DNA of 4,386 nt from a virus. Its lineage: Duplodnaviria > Heunggongvirae > Uroviricota > Caudoviricetes. This document shows positions 1 through 4,386 of the stretch, piece by piece. The translations under genes and the position numbers were made by a program. The stretch is from the IMG/VR virus record IMGVR_UViG_3300010262_000095, positions 1 through 4,386 of that record. One strand, given 5' to 3'. The notes under the pieces were generated by a model. That model saw only the letters and a list, made by a program, of their open reading frames with translations, was not told where the DNA came from and did no database searches. Position 1 is the first letter of the stretch. Each line of letters opens with the position of its first letter.

Positions 1-156
1 GGGCTTGCAGTAAAAGACTTCGGGTTCGCCGATGACATTGAATTCGCTATCGGTGCGAATGGCTGCGAACTGTGCAGGGCGATCTAACGCGGGGTGCGTG
101 CCAAAGGTTTCGTAATCGTGAAAGAGGAAGGTAGGTTGTTTATCTGTGTCTGTCAT
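1..156 (-). CDS. sbcB: Exodeoxyribonuclease I (SbcB-like), 5'-terminal 52 codons only; gene continues beyond the window start
   Basis: Reverse-complement of 1-156 translates in frame from ATG (154-156) as MTDTDKQPTFLFHDYETFGTHPALDRPAQFAAIRTDSEFNVIGEPEVFYCKP with no stop to the window edge. FLFHDYETFG is the N-terminal DEDDh exonuclease motif of Exo I. Absent from the ORF track because the fragment is short and partial. Confidence 0.7.
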   Translation of the reverse strand, partial: MTDTDKQPTFLFHDYETFGTHPALDRPAQFAAIRTDSEFNVIGEPEVFYCKP

Positions 157-176
157 TGTCTAGCATTGTCCACTGT

Positions 177-188
177 AGTTAATTAACT
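177..188. promoter_or_regulatory. Perfect 12-bp palindrome AGTTAATTAACT in the sbcB/int junction region; candidate protein-binding site (operator or recombination core element)
   Basis: Seen directly: 177-188 equals its own reverse complement. It lies 21 bp from the sbcB-like ATG and within a run of TGTC motifs (147-191). Confidence 0.3.
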
Positions 189-284
189 GTCTGTTATAAC
201 TCGAAAAACAACCATTTTTTCACCTGAGTATGTCTACGAACGTCAAATATAGTTGTTTACTGTGCGCTGTTGTCCATGTGATAT

Positions 285-329
285 TGTGTACCAGATGTGT
301 ACCAAACCATTATTTCTGAGCGTACCAAA
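285..329 (+). repeat. Three direct GTACCA-core repeats (TGTGTACCA at 285-293 and 296-304; GTACCAAA at 299-306 and 322-329) immediately upstream of int; candidate arm-type integrase binding sites or int regulatory sites
   Basis: Seen directly: GTACCA cores at 288-293, 299-304 and 322-327, spaced 11 and 23 bp (about one and two helical turns). The last copy ends 11 bp before the int ATG. Confidence 0.4.
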
Positions 330-337
330 TATTATTT

Positions 338-1516
338 ATGGCTATAAGCGACACAAAACTGCGTACTATTTATGGTAAACCATATTCGGGCCCACAAGAA
401 GTGGCTGATGCCGATGGCCTCAGCGTACGAATTTCACCGAAGGGGGTCATCCAGTTCCAGTACCGCTATCGCTGGCATGGCAAGCCTAATCGACTTGGGC
501 TTGGTCGATACCCATCCCTGTCTTTGAAGGATGCCAGACAGATCACTGCTGACTTGCGAAAGCTCTATTTCTCAGGAACGGATCCACGCACTTATTTTGA
601 AGAGAAGGTGGAGAACTCCATGACGGTCGCCCAGTGTCTCGACTACTGGTTCGACAACTACGTCTCTACAACTCTCAGAGAAAAGACCCAGGCACTTTAC
701 CGATCAACGGTTATGAAGCGCATGCATGACGCCTTTCCTAATCGTCCGGCATCTTCTATCACGGTTAAGCAATGGGTTGACCTGCTTACCGAAGAAGAAA
801 GAGATAATCCACGCCGAGCAAGGCAGGTGCTAAGCCAACTAAGATCAGCAATAAGTTGGTGCATGCGGCGTCAGTTGATAGATAGTTGCGCAATTATGAG
901 CATCCAACCAAGGGACTTCGGCTCCCGCGCTGAGGTAGGGGATCGGGTACTGTCGTATCACGAACTGGCTAAGATTTGGCTTGCTATTGAAAGAAGCCGT
1001 GCGTCTACGTCAAATAAGCTCCTTCATCAGATGCTTATGCTGTGGGGGGCGAGGCTCTCAGAGCTTAGGCTGGCAACAAAGACAGAATTTGACCTGCTGG
1101 ACAACGTATGGACCGTACCGAAAGAGCATAGCAAGATGGGTAATGTTATCCGCCGTCCAATCTTCGAACAAATTAAGCCTTTCCTCGAAAAGGCCATGAC
1201 AACGTACAATGATGTTCTTTTCCCTGGAGAAGACATAAACAAACCGATCAGCATCGCTGCAGCCAACCGATTCGTAAATAGAATAAGGGGAGGGATGGAT
1301 CTAGGTTACTGGCGAACACACGATTTCAGAAGAACGCTTGTTACACGTCTGTCCGAGATGAATGTCGAGCCCCATGTTACTGAGCGAATGCTCGGTCATG
1401 AACTTGGCGGGATAATGTCCGTATACAATAAACACGATTGGATAGAGGCTCAGCGCAAAGCGTATGAGCTTCACGCTGATAAATTGTTCTGGCACATCAG
1501 GAGCATTTCTGATTAA
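338..1516 (+). CDS. int: Site-specific tyrosine recombinase, P4-type phage integrase (392 aa)
   Basis: Long ORF with the first in-frame ATG at 338, preceded by an in-frame stop at 317-319. The N-terminus (LSVRISPKGVIQFQYRYRWHGKPNRLGLGRYPSLSLKDAR) resembles the arm-DNA-binding domain of P4-like integrases. C-terminal catalytic signature present: HDFRRT (1319-1336), GHELGG His (1397-1399), candidate nucleophile Tyr in SVYNKHDW (1424-1426). No clear SD upstream. Confidence 0.9.
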   Translation: MAISDTKLRTIYGKPYSGPQEVADADGLSVRISPKGVIQFQYRYRWHGKPNRLGLGRYPSLSLKDARQITADLRKLYFSGTDPRTYFEEKVENSMTVAQCLDYWFDNYVSTTLREKTQALYRSTVMKRMHDAFPNRPASSITVKQWVDLLTEEERDNPRRARQVLSQLRSAISWCMRRQLIDSCAIMSIQPRDFGSRAEVGDRVLSYHELAKIWLAIERSRASTSNKLLHQMLMLWGARLSELRLATKTEFDLLDNVWTVPKEHSKMGNVIRRPIFEQIKPFLEKAMTTYNDVLFPGEDINKPISIAAANRFVNRIRGGMDLGYWRTHDFRRTLVTRLSEMNVEPHVTERMLGHELGGIMSVYNKHDWIEAQRKAYELHADKLFWHIRSISD

Positions 1517-1688
1517 CGCCACCGTTAAGAATCCACCCTTCAACAGCTTCACGAAGGTATGATTTGGGGTGGGTTCTGACTGGCTTCGGAAATCCATGCC
1601 GTTTGGTATAGTTCCAGATTGTCTGACGTGATGAAACACCGAGCTTGTTCATCACTTCTTTCTCAGGAATCAGGCTGGTATCGGTCAT
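1497..1688 (-). CDS. AlpA/Vis-family helix-turn-helix protein, putative excisionase / recombination directionality factor (63 aa)
   Basis: ATG at 1688-1686 with SD GGAG (1696-1699) 7 nt upstream. Sequence SLIPEKEVMNKLGVSSRQTIWNYTKRHGFPKPVR...YLREAVEGWI fits the AlpA-family pattern. It lies immediately beside int and its 3' end overlaps the int 3' end by 20 bp. Confidence 0.75.
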   Translation of the reverse strand: MTDTSLIPEKEVMNKLGVSSRQTIWNYTKRHGFPKPVRTHPKSYLREAVEGWILNGGVNQKCS

Positions 1689-1702
1689 CTTAATTCTCCA
1701 GG

Positions 1703-1729
1703 CAAAAAGAAACCGCCATCAGGCGGTTT
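1703..1729 (-). terminator. Rho-independent terminator: 8-bp stem (1710-1717 / 1722-1729, 5 GC pairs), 4-nt loop, then a U-tract on the minus-strand transcript (1703-1709); possibly bidirectional
   Basis: Seen directly: AAACCGCC-ATCA-GGCGGTTT. The minus-strand RNA continues CUUUUUG; the plus-strand RNA continues GGUGUUCUUUC. The hairpin contains the stop codon of the 55-aa ORF and lies between that ORF and the excisionase-like gene. Confidence 0.6.
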
Positions 1730-1886
1730 GGTGTTCTTTCAGTTCTTCAATTCGAATATTGGTTACGTCTGCATGCGCTATCTGCGCCCATATCATCCAG
1801 TGGTTATAGCAGTCGTTGATGTCCTCTGCTTCGATAACCCTGTCGAATGGCTCTCCATTCCATTCACCTGTGACTCGGAAGTGCAT
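1719..1886 (-). CDS. Hypothetical small acidic protein (55 aa), not in the supplied ORF track
   Basis: ATG at 1886-1884 immediately preceded by an in-frame TAA. SD GGAG (1894-1897) 7 nt upstream. Translation MHFRVTGEWNGEPFDRVIEAEDINDCYNHWMIWAQIAHADVTNIRIEELKEHQTA (11 acidic, 4 basic residues). The TGA stop (1721-1719) sits in the terminator loop. Same strand as the operon. Confidence 0.55.
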   Translation of the reverse strand: MHFRVTGEWNGEPFDRVIEAEDINDCYNHWMIWAQIAHADVTNIRIEELKEHQTA

Positions 1887-1958
1887 TTATCATCTCCATA
1901 AAACAAAACCCGCCGTAGCGAGTTCAGATAAAAGAAATCCCCGCTATTGCGAGGATTG

Positions 1959-2243
1959 TTATTCATTGCCGATATTCACCTTTATCGCGAACACCTTTAC
2001 CGGTTTATCACCGAAGTGCGGATGTGTGATTGTCTTGATTTCATATCCGTCATACGGAACATCAATTCTGCGGCTGGAATCGTCGCGCTTCGGATATCCC
2101 TTTGTGATAATCAGGCGGTCATACTCCCGGAACATAATTCGCTTATTCCAGTAGTCATTACACAGGCGATACTCTTCCGTTTTCTCTCCACTAATCATGG
2201 CATCGAAGTATTCACCTTTGACGGAAAGTTGCAGGTTAGCCAC
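1959..2243 (-). CDS. ASCH/PUA-like small protein (94 aa); start revised to GTG 2243 instead of TTG 2318
   Basis: GTG at 2243-2241 with AGGAGG (2250-2255) 6 nt upstream; it overlaps the upstream gene's stop by 8 bp. Contains GEKTEEYR (2166-2189), matching the GxKxxExR hallmark of ASCH-type PUA-like domains. The ORF-track start at 2318 is a TTG deep inside the upstream gene without an SD. Confidence 0.6.
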   Translation of the reverse strand: MANLQLSVKGEYFDAMISGEKTEEYRLCNDYWNKRIMFREYDRLIITKGYPKRDDSSRRIDVPYDGYEIKTITHPHFGDKPVKVFAIKVNIGNE

Positions 2244-2454
2244 GGTTAACCTCCTGCGCCGTTTTGATGATTGCTGCCAGACAATTCTTGCAAGGAACAA
2301 GCAGCGCTCCCTGCTCAATGCTCAACAGCGCGTGCTGAGCATCCTGAAACAACCAGTCTGAAAATTGTGGCGCATGTCCGCACCACGTTTCTATTTCATG
2401 CTTTGCAAGTTTAACTCCCTCTCGATAGTCATATTTGATGATGTGCTTGCTCAC
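2236..2454 (-). CDS. Hypothetical 72-aa protein with a possible Cys/His metal-binding arrangement (C25, H27, C55, C58)
   Basis: GTG at 2454-2452 with AGGAGG 7 nt upstream; GTGA overlap with the stop of the preceding gene (2451-2453). Translation MSKHIIKYDYREGVKLAKHEIETWCGHAPQFSDWLFQDAQHALLSIEQGALLVPCKNCLAAIIKTAQEVNRG. No family recognised. Confidence 0.55.
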   Translation of the reverse strand: MSKHIIKYDYREGVKLAKHEIETWCGHAPQFSDWLFQDAQHALLSIEQGALLVPCKNCLAAIIKTAQEVNRG

Positions 2455-2642
2455 GACTTCACCTCCTGTTGAGCAGAAACCTGATTTTTGAGTGATTCAG
2501 AAATATTCCTGCAATACCTAGCGGATTCATCGTCGAAAATGCTTTCGAAATACTCAGCAATCCAGCCGAACACAACAACCTGCTCATTGCTTGGATTTGC
2601 GCTTTGATTGAAGGCGGTTATTAGTGATGCACTCATACTCAC
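2451..2642 (-). CDS. Hypothetical small acidic protein (63 aa; alternative ATG start at 2636)
   Basis: GTG at 2642-2640 overlaps the upstream TGA stop (2639-2641); ATG two codons later at 2636-2634. AGGAGG upstream (4 nt from the GTG, 10 nt from the ATG). 8 acidic and 4 basic residues. No family recognised. Confidence 0.55.
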   Translation of the reverse strand: MSMSASLITAFNQSANPSNEQVVVFGWIAEYFESIFDDESARYCRNISESLKNQVSAQQEVKS

Positions 2643-3319
2643 TTAACCTCCTGTTTTGGTGCTGCTGGAAGCGGCATCCAGTGGGTTATGATTACTTCGC
2701 GAGGATTGCAGTCGTCCTCTACTGGCTGCCACTCCGTCCATCCGTTGGTTTGATAGACAAAGAAATAAGCAGGAATGTAGCCTGGTTCATCTCCTTCAAA
2801 ATATGTTCCCCAGCAAAGATACAAGCAATTGCTATCAGGCATTCGCTCACTACAGCTTATCCAACCATCCGGAATTACCGGAGAGTTGCCACCGGGAATA
2901 TTTTCCGGAATATTTTGTTGTGCGTTTTGTGGTTGTTCGGATTTACCCTGAAGCATAGCGGCACGGCAGGCGTTCCAGCCTCTCACCTCTGCAATAGCAG
3001 CAACAGCATCGACCGCGTACATTTTAAGAGGGTTAGGCATTGGTTTTTCTTCAGGTACTACTGGCACTGGAGGGGCGGCATAAACAGGAATAACGTCCGA
3101 TTGATCTTTATTGCTTTCATCTGTTAAAGCCCAGAATAATTTTCCAGCCGGATGTTTGAAAATATAAGCAACTGGTTCTGCTTCCAGCGATGCCAGCGCC
3201 AACTTGAACGCCTGAAGCTCAATGGCACTGTTGGTATCCAGTCCAAACGGTAATTCATCACGATTGGCTTCGTATTCAGCGATAGTTTGCTTCAGCCATT
3301 CTTTGGTTAGTTCAGCCAT
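2639..3319 (-). CDS. DUF551-domain prophage protein (226 aa from ATG 3319; ORF-track start 3370 judged less likely)
   Basis: C-terminal region DGWISCSERMPDSNC...GWTEWQP...VIITHWMPLPAAPKQ matches the DUF551 signature (WI..ER.P ... THWMPLP.PP) as I recall it. ATG at 3319-3317 lies 4 nt after the upstream stop (3324-3326) with a weak AGGG/AAGGGG SD. ATG 3370 has no SD and would overlap the upstream gene by 47 bp. Confidence 0.65.
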   Translation of the reverse strand: MAELTKEWLKQTIAEYEANRDELPFGLDTNSAIELQAFKLALASLEAEPVAYIFKHPAGKLFWALTDESNKDQSDVIPVYAAPPVPVVPEEKPMPNPLKMYAVDAVAAIAEVRGWNACRAAMLQGKSEQPQNAQQNIPENIPGGNSPVIPDGWISCSERMPDSNCLYLCWGTYFEGDEPGYIPAYFFVYQTNGWTEWQPVEDDCNPREVIITHWMPLPAAPKQEVK

Positions 3320-3323
3320 ATCC

Positions 3324-3776
3324 CTAATTCCCCTTGATGCTGACTTTGACGCCAACCTTGCGAATCTCATCGGCGCATCTGTTCACGATACTCCGGTGAA
3401 ACTCACAAAAAATTTTCGCCGACTGCGGCCCTAATGGGTGAACATTGTGCGCACGCGGCAGTACAACCTCCCGCGCCTCCATGTCAGCAATCCGCTTGTC
3501 TTTGGCTTCCAGCTCATCCAGCAGCGCCAGCACGGTAGCTGGATTGGCTGCGGCGATGAATTCAGCATTGGCCTGCTGTTCCATTTGGAAATCTTCATCG
3601 AAACCGCTTTCAGGATGCGCTCCTTCAATTCTGCAAATGGGAAGATATCCAACAACTTCACGATGAATTAGCGCATCATCAGCATCAAATCTCTCCTCTC
3701 CATATTCGAGCGACCACACACCACTCGTTGCTTTCTCTGCCGCTTCACGCAGTGCCTGATAGTCAATCTTGCTCAC
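3324..3776 (-). CDS. Ea22-like (ead/Ea22 family) prophage protein (150 aa)
   Basis: GTG at 3776-3774 with AAGGAGG 6 nt upstream; GTGA overlap with the upstream stop. N-terminal IDYQALREAAEKATSGVWS and internal FIAAANPATVLALLDELE match motifs I recall from lambdoid ead/Ea22-like proteins. Confidence 0.65.
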   Translation of the reverse strand: MSKIDYQALREAAEKATSGVWSLEYGEERFDADDALIHREVVGYLPICRIEGAHPESGFDEDFQMEQQANAEFIAAANPATVLALLDELEAKDKRIADMEAREVVLPRAHNVHPLGPQSAKIFCEFHRSIVNRCADEIRKVGVKVSIKGN

Positions 3777-4204
3777 TGGTTGCCTCCTTTGCGAAGCTGG
3801 GCAGCAAAGTCACGGATAGTGTCATCAAGGTCTGGGCACAACAGATGGTCAGCAAACATCTCCACGCCCTGCGCCCGTACTTCATCCAGAAAAGCATCGG
3901 TGGCTGGGGTTTCAGTAACATCATCTTCCCATTCGCTAAACTCCTCACGACAAAAGTCATTAAATTCCTTCTCAGATTGCTTAAGCGATGTATTTTCTGC
4001 AGCCATCTTCGCGCATTTAGCCTCAAGGTTATCAATCGTGATTCCAGCAGAACGACACTCCCGCAACGCCGTTTCCAGTTTTGATTCAAGTTCACCGAAC
4101 TTACGGACAAGATATTCAGCGTTTGTTTCGTTAATCTTTAAATCTCGTGGGATGTATTTACCTTTCAGAAAACCATCCATCTCAATTAGTGACATTTGTT
4201 TCAT
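3773..4204 (-). CDS. Coiled-coil prophage protein, possibly the N-terminal partner of an Ea22-like pair (143 aa from ATG 4204; ORF-track GTG start at 4222)
   Basis: ATG at 4204-4202 forms an ATGA overlap with the upstream stop (4201-4203). GTG 4222 has no SD. The central region ([38 protein letters not shown]) looks coiled-coil. The C-terminal [21 protein letters not shown] resembles segments of Ea22-like proteins, from memory. Confidence 0.55.
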
Positions 4205-4383
4205 TTCTTCCCACTCCGCCACATCGCATTCAGATATTTGTTTTGATTTACTGACGGAAAAGAATTTCTCTTAAGCAATTCCTCTCTCGATGGCATTGGC
4301 TTTACGCGTTGGCGAATAATCATTTCTGCCGGAAGAATGCCGGGATTGTATGCAAGTCCTCTCATGGTAAATTCCTCAGTCAT
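4201..4383 (-). CDS. Hypothetical small protein; 5' end uncertain (frame is open to the window edge; candidate starts at ATG 4383 and at SD-supported ATG 4365)
   Basis: Frame is open from 4386 to the TGA at 4203-4201. ATG 4365-4363 is preceded by GAGG 6 nt upstream. Translation from 4365: [54 protein letters not shown]. No family recognised. Confidence 0.4.
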
Positions 4384-4386
4384 TAC

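Follow-up and report, generated by a model that had tools for sequence, protein, structure and literature searches.

What is a 55-codon open reading frame (ORF) that ends inside the loop of a transcription terminator, and what might its product do? The question arises from a 4,386-nucleotide stretch of a Caudoviricetes virus (IMG/VR record IMGVR_UViG_3300010262_000095, positions 1 to 4,386; the whole stretch is referred to here as the window), in which a minus-strand ORF runs from an ATG at 1886-1884 to a TGA at 1721-1719. A preliminary description of the sequence had proposed it as a translated gene for a small acidic protein of no recognised family. We found that the ORF is, almost beyond doubt, the ortholog of bacteriophage lambda orf55 and encodes a real protein; it is a long-known, functionally uncharacterised gene and not a new kind of element. 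Taken as a whole, the results are probably best explained by a dispensable accessory protein that depends on antitermination for its expression and acts by binding a host protein.

Identity and coding status of the reading frame

Every observed detail of the preliminary description was borne out by the DNA itself. The 55-amino-acid (aa) frame at 1719-1886, the GGAG Shine-Dalgarno (SD) sequence with its 7-nt spacing and the in-frame stop abutting the 5' side of the ATG (TAA, 1889-1887) are all present, and the product is acidic as claimed, with 11 Asp and Glu residues against 4 Lys and Arg residues, along with 4 His residues (isoelectric point (pI) 4.72, net charge −7). The frame lies on the same strand as the entire early-left gene string, and the strand and operon context are those of a genuine gene in the early or accessory exo-xis region transcribed from pL. 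Because the window holds 51 ORFs of at least 30 aa, a length of 55 codons is by itself no better than chance; the significance of this frame comes from its conservation and the selection acting on it.

In a search of PHROG profiles, residues 1-55 of the protein matched positions 1-55 of the 55-position phrog_676 profile (E = 1.3e-38), and the protein is 92.7% identical over its full length to lambda lambdap35 (NP_597778) and phage 434 ORF55 (AAA67903). The statement that it belonged to no recognised family was therefore wrong: the matching lambda coding sequence is annotated in RefSeq as lambdap35 ('hypothetical protein, predicted by GeneMark'), ORF55 is the name in the 1991 phage 434 record, an AlphaFold model has been published, and orf55 is listed last among the ORFs of the lambda exo-xis region (PMC3824215). 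Scans of the protein against Pfam, NCBIfam and PADLOC returned no match. The homology searches thus yielded a conserved family and assigned no mundane function, either a lack of conservation or a mundane function being what the preliminary description would have counted against its proposal. The name 'ORF55' also appears in papers on anti-defence genes and on phage phiKZ, where it proved in each case to denote a different protein (a DruSM1 DNA ligase and a subunit of the phiKZ non-virion RNA polymerase, nvRNAP).

A tblastn search of deposited phages found the gene in 87 records, including lambda (29121-29285, complementary strand), 434, DE3, HK106, mEp phages and Shiga toxin (Stx) phages, at 85-98% identity. 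The closest DNA match among phages was the P22-like APC_JM3.2 (97.5%), in which the gene is flanked by the same genes, and a 276-base query covering the gene and its flanking terminators (1690-1965) was 100% identical to a prophage adjoining sbcB in Escherichia coli NT1F10. Of the 5426 complete E. coli genomes searched, 2592 carry this cassette, some of them in as many as five copies. The lambda allele, 93% identical to that of the window, also turned up in mostly non-enteric assemblies, which we discarded as evidence of host range on account of likely lambda DNA contamination. These genome-contig matches (L011-L026 and L028) were assigned to Shewanella, Pseudomonas, Kitasatospora, Oceanobacillus, Bradyrhizobium, Algoriphagus, Enterococcus and others; the contigs are often ~48.4-48.5 kb long, or tiny and of low coverage, and are almost certainly lambda control or ladder DNA in public assemblies.

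More distant homologs (35-57% identity by profile search) were found in Klebsiella, Citrobacter, Enterobacter, Leclercia, Atlantibacter, Yersinia, Erwinia, Proteus and Morganella. They keep the length and motifs of the protein on unrelated DNA, and in distant phages the gene sits in the early-left operon beside N, kil or cIII and not beside xis. A family profile run exhaustively with HMMER against 1.84 billion representatives gave only 53 proteins, mostly family members or fragments with a few long multi-stretch matches, and the family therefore appears to be small and limited to phages of Enterobacterales. Seven of the 53 proteins were inspected, and none linked the family to T7 Gp2 (discussed below) or to any named family. 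Residues F3, T6, W9, N10, I18, E19, A20, E21, D25, H29 and A39 are invariant or nearly so, and acidity is a property of the whole family (median net charge −5, median pI 4.73).

We measured selection on the E. coli-clade ORF with the 54 different nucleotide alleles found among 116 collected loci. The 33 polymorphic sites fall on codon positions 1, 2 and 3 in the numbers 12, 3 and 18. Mean synonymous (pS) and nonsynonymous (pN) polymorphism are 0.093 and 0.022, a pN/pS of 0.23, which becomes 0.16 over codons 1-52, that is, without the three codons in the terminator stem. This pattern indicates that orf55 is a true coding gene under purifying selection. It also bears on the possibility that there is no gene here, and that a chance open frame lies in sequence conserved for terminators or RNA. 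The high nucleotide identity of the E. coli-clade cassette (~91-100%) and an antisense frame that is open as well would suit such a reading, which we nonetheless consider extremely improbable: the third-position bias and low pN/pS belong to the sense frame only, the distant protein homologs lie on unrelated DNA, the structural model described below is confident, and the translation signals are conserved. The SD is unchanged across an alignment of five phages and is kept in nearly all upstream variants, and the start codon is conserved in both comparisons. The conservation analysis effectively refutes the absence of a gene.

The antisense frame has 57 codons on the plus strand (1728-1901) and overlaps orf55; it is open in 51 of the 54 alleles and interrupted in three. 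We rejected it as the selected frame because of these interruptions and because 18 of the 33 polymorphic sites are first positions of its codons, a pattern that marks it as a by-product of the sense frame.

Disrupted copies of orf55 numbered 2 of 115, in phages HK022 and P27. Both HK022 records (X51962, near position 345, and NC_002166) have a 1-base deletion directly after the ATG (ATGC-CTTCC), owing to which the gene is unannotated, although the remainder is 98% identical; the deletion is a real frameshift or else a mistake in the old sequence data. In P27 (locus L009), the 5' part of the gene is replaced. The C-terminal 20-40 residues of Orf55 are also found fused to unrelated N-termini (P0048, P0049, P0056, P0058, P0067, P0069 and P0086-P0088, as well as L009), and recombination or deletion joints must therefore also fall within orf55. 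Such remnants fit a report that phage 933W has a 'portion of orf55'.

The terminator-bounded cassette and its transcription

The stop codon had been placed inside a terminator hairpin, and the sequence agrees. Along the minus strand, a 5' arm (AAACCGCC, 1729-1722) made of codons 53-55 is followed by the loop TGAT (1721-1718), which holds the TGA, by a 3' arm (GGCGGTTT, 1717-1710) and then by CTTTTT. The preliminary description was accurate on this hairpin and incomplete on the region, as it did not mention two tandem hairpins upstream of the gene. The three GC-rich stem-loops with T-tracts all lie on the minus strand (1957-1936, 1925-1906 and 1729-1710; numbered 1 to 3 here, Table 1), and a consensus scan found five terminator-like sites in the 1-kb region against 0.8 expected. 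Hairpin 1 begins 1 nt past the stop codon of the upstream gene, and the T-tract of hairpin 2 runs directly into the orf55 SD. Folded together, the two upstream hairpins give −25.9 kcal/mol (z = −4.5). For the downstream hairpin, a 51-nt segment folds at −14.2 kcal/mol (z = −2.4) and a 45-nt segment gives z = −3.7, with none of 200 shuffles as stable. Hairpin 1 corresponds to lambda t3 and, by coordinates, to the site that the records of 434 and HK022 name 'tL4'; hairpins 2 and 3 correspond to lambda t4 and t5, and all three lambda sites were predicted in silico (PMC4195576, Table 4). On the strength of these annotations and in-silico predictions, we refer to the three hairpins as predicted intrinsic terminators.

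Aligned with lambda, 434, HK022 and APC_JM3.2, the window is ~95% identical in DNA over the whole stretch that begins with hairpin 1 and ends with the hairpin 3 T-tract, and similarity ends right outside these two elements. At least five unrelated downstream contexts start immediately after the T-tract (lambda xis, 434 ORF114, the AlpA gene of the window and two others), and the upstream contexts are many and differ across loci. Judged from these alignments, orf55 moves as a compact cassette of two tandem terminators, an SD, the 55-codon frame and, enclosing the stop codon in its loop, a third terminator, and the mosaic recombination joints appear to sit just outside it. Within the cassette, hairpin 2 has alleles in which G.U becomes A-U and a double compensatory change from C-G to U-A, and hairpin 1 is swapped for a different hairpin at the same site in some relatives. 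The 3' arm and loop of hairpin 3 are identical in 29 of 30 downstream variants, and codon 54 in its 5' arm varies (Ala, Thr, Ser, Asp or Asn) without compensation.

A divergent clade of ~50% aa identity shows the same arrangement with other stems. At loci L005 (3120-3165) and L034, a hairpin followed by T6 once more has the stop codon in or at its loop, the stems being GGGUCGCU/AGCGGCUU and AGGUCGC/GCGGCCU. Neither hairpin folds significantly more stably than shuffled sequence (z = −1.8 and −1.3), locus L008 gives no convincing fold, and the Yersinia and Proteus clades keep the protein and lack the arrangement. Selection may nevertheless maintain this overlap between stop codon and terminator.

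A simple sigma-70 consensus search found no sigma-70-like promoter in 1400-2400 on either strand, and the SD of orf55, placed directly after the upstream T-tract, leaves no room for one. Both observations argue against an autonomous 'moron', a unit with its own promoter, gene and terminator. The genes of the lambda exo-xis region are transcribed from pL (PMC4195576). With no promoter-like site in the region scanned and no gap between the SD and the T-tract of the upstream terminator, orf55 would be transcribed only by RNA polymerase (RNAP) that reads through terminators, on an N-type antiterminated pL transcript (through N in lambda and an analogue here). We consider such dependence on antitermination likely. 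Transcription of this kind would make orf55 a delayed-early gene that is silent in the lysogen, and the three terminators would probably also shield xis and int from unmodified transcription.

Ribosomes close to a terminator reduce its efficiency. By analogy, a ribosome finishing orf55 would occlude the hairpin, and translation could lower termination at t5. If this were the main role of the gene, orf55 would chiefly be a cis-acting translated leader in which a ribosome at the stop codon blocks folding of the terminator and so gates read-through into xis and int, with the peptide secondary. The position of the stop in the loop, the use of codons 53-55 as the 5' arm, the recurrence of the arrangement with other stems at L005 and L034 and the location of the cassette directly upstream of diverse integration modules would all suit a leader. 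We nevertheless regard it as very unlikely, because the protein sequence is under purifying selection and has a confident predicted fold, the Yersinia and Proteus homologs keep the protein without the terminator, codon-54 variants weaken the stem without compensation, and N-type antitermination would override the terminator in any case.

Predicted structure and candidate functions of Orf55

AlphaFold2, run with an alignment of 40 sequences, gave a confident beta-beta-alpha-beta model (mean predicted local distance difference test score, pLDDT, 93.3) with strands at 2-9, 12-19 and 41-49, a helix at 23-37 and a disordered tail at 50-55. Orf55 was previously modelled by AlphaFold and RoseTTAFold as three beta-strands and one helix, with phi29 p56, the RNAP epsilon subunit and T7 Gp2 named as neighbours in the Protein Data Bank (PDB) (Donaldson 2021; PMC8614690), and our structure prediction, which the preliminary description had suggested, reproduced these neighbours. 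Foldseek ranked T7 Gp2 bound to E. coli RNAP first in the PDB (4lk0_M; probability 0.98, template modelling (TM) score 0.58-0.61, identity 23%, range 22-24%, E = 0.064), with 4llg also among the top Gp2-RNAP matches and YkzG/epsilon and p56 next. No PDB match reached E <= 0.001 and none in BFVD reached E 0.001, the only named BFVD neighbours being Gp2-type inhibitors. When all PDB sequences were searched with a profile, no match was significant, the best being archaeal ribosomal protein eL20 (LX) at E = 0.1.

The biology of eL20 and of PurS, a further match, is unrelated to that of Orf55. Both show how common this minimal fold is, and fold similarity alone therefore cannot assign a function; as modelled, the Orf55 fold appears to be a generic minimal beta-beta-alpha-beta unit. 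The YkzG/RpoY epsilon subunit of Firmicutes (PDB 4njc and 6wvk_E) is a cellular Gram-positive protein with no sequence similarity to Orf55, and the Orf55 family gave no Pfam match. The nearest structural neighbours with a phage function are small acidic inhibitors of host proteins: T7 Gp2, the phi29-type p56 (an inhibitor of uracil-DNA glycosylase, UDG) and the anti-CRISPR AcrIE2. These neighbours make the earlier suggestion of a host-takeover factor a reasonable one.

The Gp2 matches bear on a proposal, made explicitly as speculation and accompanied by a compatible docked model, that Orf55 interacts with RNAP in the manner of Gp2 (PMC8614690). Orf55 would then be a functional analogue or remote homolog of Gp2 that would bind the beta' jaw of host RNAP with sigma70 region 1.1 and would dampen sigma70-dependent host transcription early in lytic growth. 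T7 Gp2 (Pfam PF16857; PDB 2wnm, 2lmc, 4lk0 and 4llg) is likewise a small acidic phage early protein of beta-beta-alpha-beta topology, and the Orf55 and Gp2 proteins are alike in size (55 and 64 aa) and acidity (median net charge −5 and −4). The hhalign alignment is in the structural register, and in the ungapped alignment several acidic positions are superimposed and Gp2 R58 falls on R45 of Orf55. The hhalign probability, however, was 1.2% with a first Gp2 profile and 1.4% with a second, widened with members of Ningirsuvirus, Kayfunavirus and Minipunavirus. PF16857 was matched neither by the window protein (E <= 0.1) nor by any of the 40 family members (E <= 10), and BLASTP against a divergent Gp2-like protein of Sibilus, 33% identical in the Foldseek alignment, found nothing.

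The residues that contact RNAP argue in the same direction. R56 and R58 lie on strand beta3 of Gp2, contact the beta' jaw and are invariant in 21 Gp2 sequences, as part of a set of family invariants that also includes P59, G51, F52, Y47, V29, P30 and A33. This jaw-binding pair is not conserved in the Orf55 family. The equivalent of R56 is N43, which is never Arg in the 40 family members (28 Asn, 5 Asp, 5 Glu, 1 Ser and 1 Gly), and that of R58 is R45, which is Arg in 11, Gln in 10, Glu in 10, Asp in 4, His in 3 and Val in 1 (acidic in 14 of 40). The single arginine on which the published docking model relies is thus no family feature, and these comparisons do not demonstrate that Orf55 belongs with Gp2 in one family. 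The phages that encode Gp2 are also lytic and have their own RNAP, whereas lambdoid phages rely on that of the host; lambda needs host RNAP throughout its cycle, and a strong Gp2-like block would be self-defeating. We therefore consider it unlikely that Orf55 is a Gp2 analogue or homolog, and host RNAP as its specific, Gp2-like target is similarly doubtful.

A looser relation to Gp2 can be pictured, at about the same low level of likelihood, in which Orf55 would be a temperate-phage counterpart that acts on host RNAP or another DNA-handling machine through a surface other than the arginines. That surface would comprise the invariant W9-N10-G11 turn and a patch formed by E19, E21, D22, D25 and H29. 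The effect could be a transient re-tuning of host transcription or replication in the delayed-early phase, which could account for part of the 'bin' and exo-xis phenotypes, and the terminator holding the gene's own stop would gate both production of Orf55 and read-through into xis and int.

The preliminary description had mentioned DNA mimics, and a further possibility is a DNA-mimic or anti-defence protein, comparable to p56 or a small anti-CRISPR protein, that would block a host DNA-binding enzyme or immune system. p56 acts as a dimer and DNA mimic. The conserved acidity of the Orf55 family and the accessory, dispensable and mosaic nature of the gene would be in keeping with such a role, as would its location, since the lambda pL genes gam and ral inhibit host nucleases and restriction. 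Nevertheless, identity to p56 structures (PDB 4l5n, 2le2 and 8ail) is 0-13% at a Foldseek probability of at most 0.41, scores as weak as those for dozens of unrelated proteins, and a net charge of −5 over ~50 residues is modest against that of bona fide DNA mimics. Presence of the gene did not co-vary with a particular defence context, and nothing specific in these data points to such a role. No PADLOC model matched either, which counts for little because that library covers defence and not anti-defence. We rate a DNA-mimic role as quite unlikely, slightly below a Gp2-like one.

A third proposal comes from the genetics of lambda. The 'bin' activity, which stops the host chromosome from initiating replication, was assigned to the orf73-ea22-ea8.5-orf55 segment, according to the citation of Sergueev et al. 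2002 in PMC9239242, and the exo-xis region, including orf55, alters lysogenisation and induction by dosage (PMC3824215). A contribution of Orf55 to this block would fit both reports. The phenotype has, however, never been resolved to orf55, and Orf73 (TraR-like) and Ea22 have documented activities of their own that could explain it. In addition, orf55 occurs without ea8.5 and beside other neighbours in the window and in many relatives, and thus does not need those partners. We hold a part in 'bin' to be about as improbable as DNA mimicry.

Our preferred reading remains that of an accessory protein that binds a host protein. Orf55 would consist of a 49-residue beta-beta-alpha-beta domain and a disordered 6-residue tail, too small for an enzyme and acidic across the family, with the invariant turn and the patch described above, and would most likely act stoichiometrically, using the conserved acidic patch to bind a host protein that handles nucleic acids. 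That it is a protein-binding modulator seems to us somewhat favoured by these features. The candidate targets, namely RNAP, a DNA-handling or defence enzyme and the replication-initiation machinery, are each unlikely when taken singly.

Several points weigh against this reading. The case for binding a host protein consists only of small size, acidity and non-significant fold neighbours, and translation of orf55 is deduced from its sequence. The promoter scan used a simple sigma-70 consensus, which a weak or activator-dependent promoter could escape. Copies that are truncated or chimeric in some prophages (HK022, P27 and the several database proteins noted above) mean that orf55 is dispensable. 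We found no direct experiment on the protein in the literature searched, and orf55 is not mentioned in the yeast two-hybrid (Y2H) map of lambda. A CRISPR interference (CRISPRi) essentiality map of lambda, in which all of the pL genes tested except N were dispensable for plaque formation, did not target lambdap35, which lacks a protospacer adjacent motif (PAM) (PMC10695390).

Orf55, its predicted fold, the speculation about Gp2 and the flanking terminators are already in the literature or database records. Added here are a quantitative test of selection, the limits and invariant residues of the family, the lack of conservation of the key Gp2 arginines, the placement of mosaic boundaries at the terminators and the recurrence of a stop codon in a hairpin in a divergent clade. 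Missed by genome-wide screens for the reasons just given, orf55 is among the few lambda genes without an experimental function, despite the presence of its cassette in 2592 complete E. coli genomes. Defining its host target would fill in a missing piece of the most thoroughly studied temperate phage and would bear on the induction of Shiga-toxin prophages, as the exo-xis region modulates the lysis-lysogeny decision.

Neighbouring genes and comparison with lambda

Table 1. Features of the orf55 region, with positions in the window.
Feature	Position	Strand	Basis or remark
orf55 homolog, 55 aa, MHFRVTGEWNGEPFDRVIEAEDINDCYNHWMIWAQIAHADVTNIRIEELKEHQTA	1719-1886 (stop included)	minus	phrog_676 match, identity to lambda, pN/pS, AlphaFold2
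SD, GGAG	1894-1897	minus	Read from sequence; 7-nt spacer ATGATAA to ATG
Predicted terminator, upstream hairpin 1 and T-tract, AATCCTCGC-AATA-GCGGGGATT + TCTTTTAT	1927-1957	minus	Terminator scan, folding
Predicted terminator, upstream hairpin 2 and T-tract, GAACTCGC-TACG-GCGGGTTT + TGTTTTAT	1898-1925	minus	Scan, folding; lambda t4
Predicted downstream intrinsic terminator, hairpin 3, AAACCGCC-TGAT-GGCGGTTT + CTTTTTGCC	1701-1729	minus	Scan, folding; lambda t5
AlpA-type helix-turn-helix (HTH) regulator/excisionase, 63 aa	1497-1688	minus	Next gene downstream; SD GGAG 1696-1699
ASCH-domain protein, 95 aa, phrog_625	1959-2246	minus	Gene upstream; context
Small ORF, 72 aa, phrog_4090	2236-2454	minus	Same operon as orf55; PHROG of unknown function
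Small ORF, 63 aa, phrog_23654	2451-2642	minus	Same operon as orf55; PHROG of unknown function

The coordinates of orf55, its signals and its neighbours are collected in Table 1. The two small ORFs furthest upstream matched no Pfam family at the gathering score, and each overlaps the adjacent genes at its start and stop, an arrangement suggestive of translational coupling. The downstream AlpA-type protein matched Pfam Phage_AlpA at E = 0.003, short of the gathering score, as well as phrog_66 ('excisionase and transcriptional regulator') at E = 1.9e-8, and its counterpart in APC_JM3.2 is annotated as AlpA family. This gene is context, outside the conserved cassette. It converges with an integrase gene on the plus strand (338-1516), the 3' ends overlapping by 20 nt (1497-1516), in an integration module like that of P4 and CP4-57 (Arm-DNA-bind_3 and AlpA) grafted onto a lambdoid early-left operon.

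Host DNA is seen at the start of the window, where exonuclease I (sbcB; MTDTDKQPTFLFHDYETFGTHPALDRPAQF...) has its N-terminus encoded on the minus strand at positions 1-170. Directly upstream of sbcB is the integrase gene of the prophage, separated from it by a gap at 171-337. Because the integrase adjoins sbcB, the attachment junction is expected within this ~170-nt gap. The annotation of E. coli NT1F10 likewise places int beside sbcB and tsuB/yeeD. The element is a P22-like or lambdoid prophage integrated beside E. coli sbcB.

Compared with lambda, the window protein differs by four substitutions (D15N, D22N, N28D and T54A). The gene upstream encodes an ASCH-domain protein where lambda has ea8.5, and downstream an AlpA-type regulator and a convergent P4-type integrase take the place of xis and int, which in lambda are co-directional. 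The cassette itself matches that of lambda and 434 in its SD and start context, in its three hairpins (t3 or tL4, t4 and t5) and in the stop codon within the t5 loop, and in all three phages it occupies the promoter-distal end of the exo-xis segment, just ahead of the integration module.

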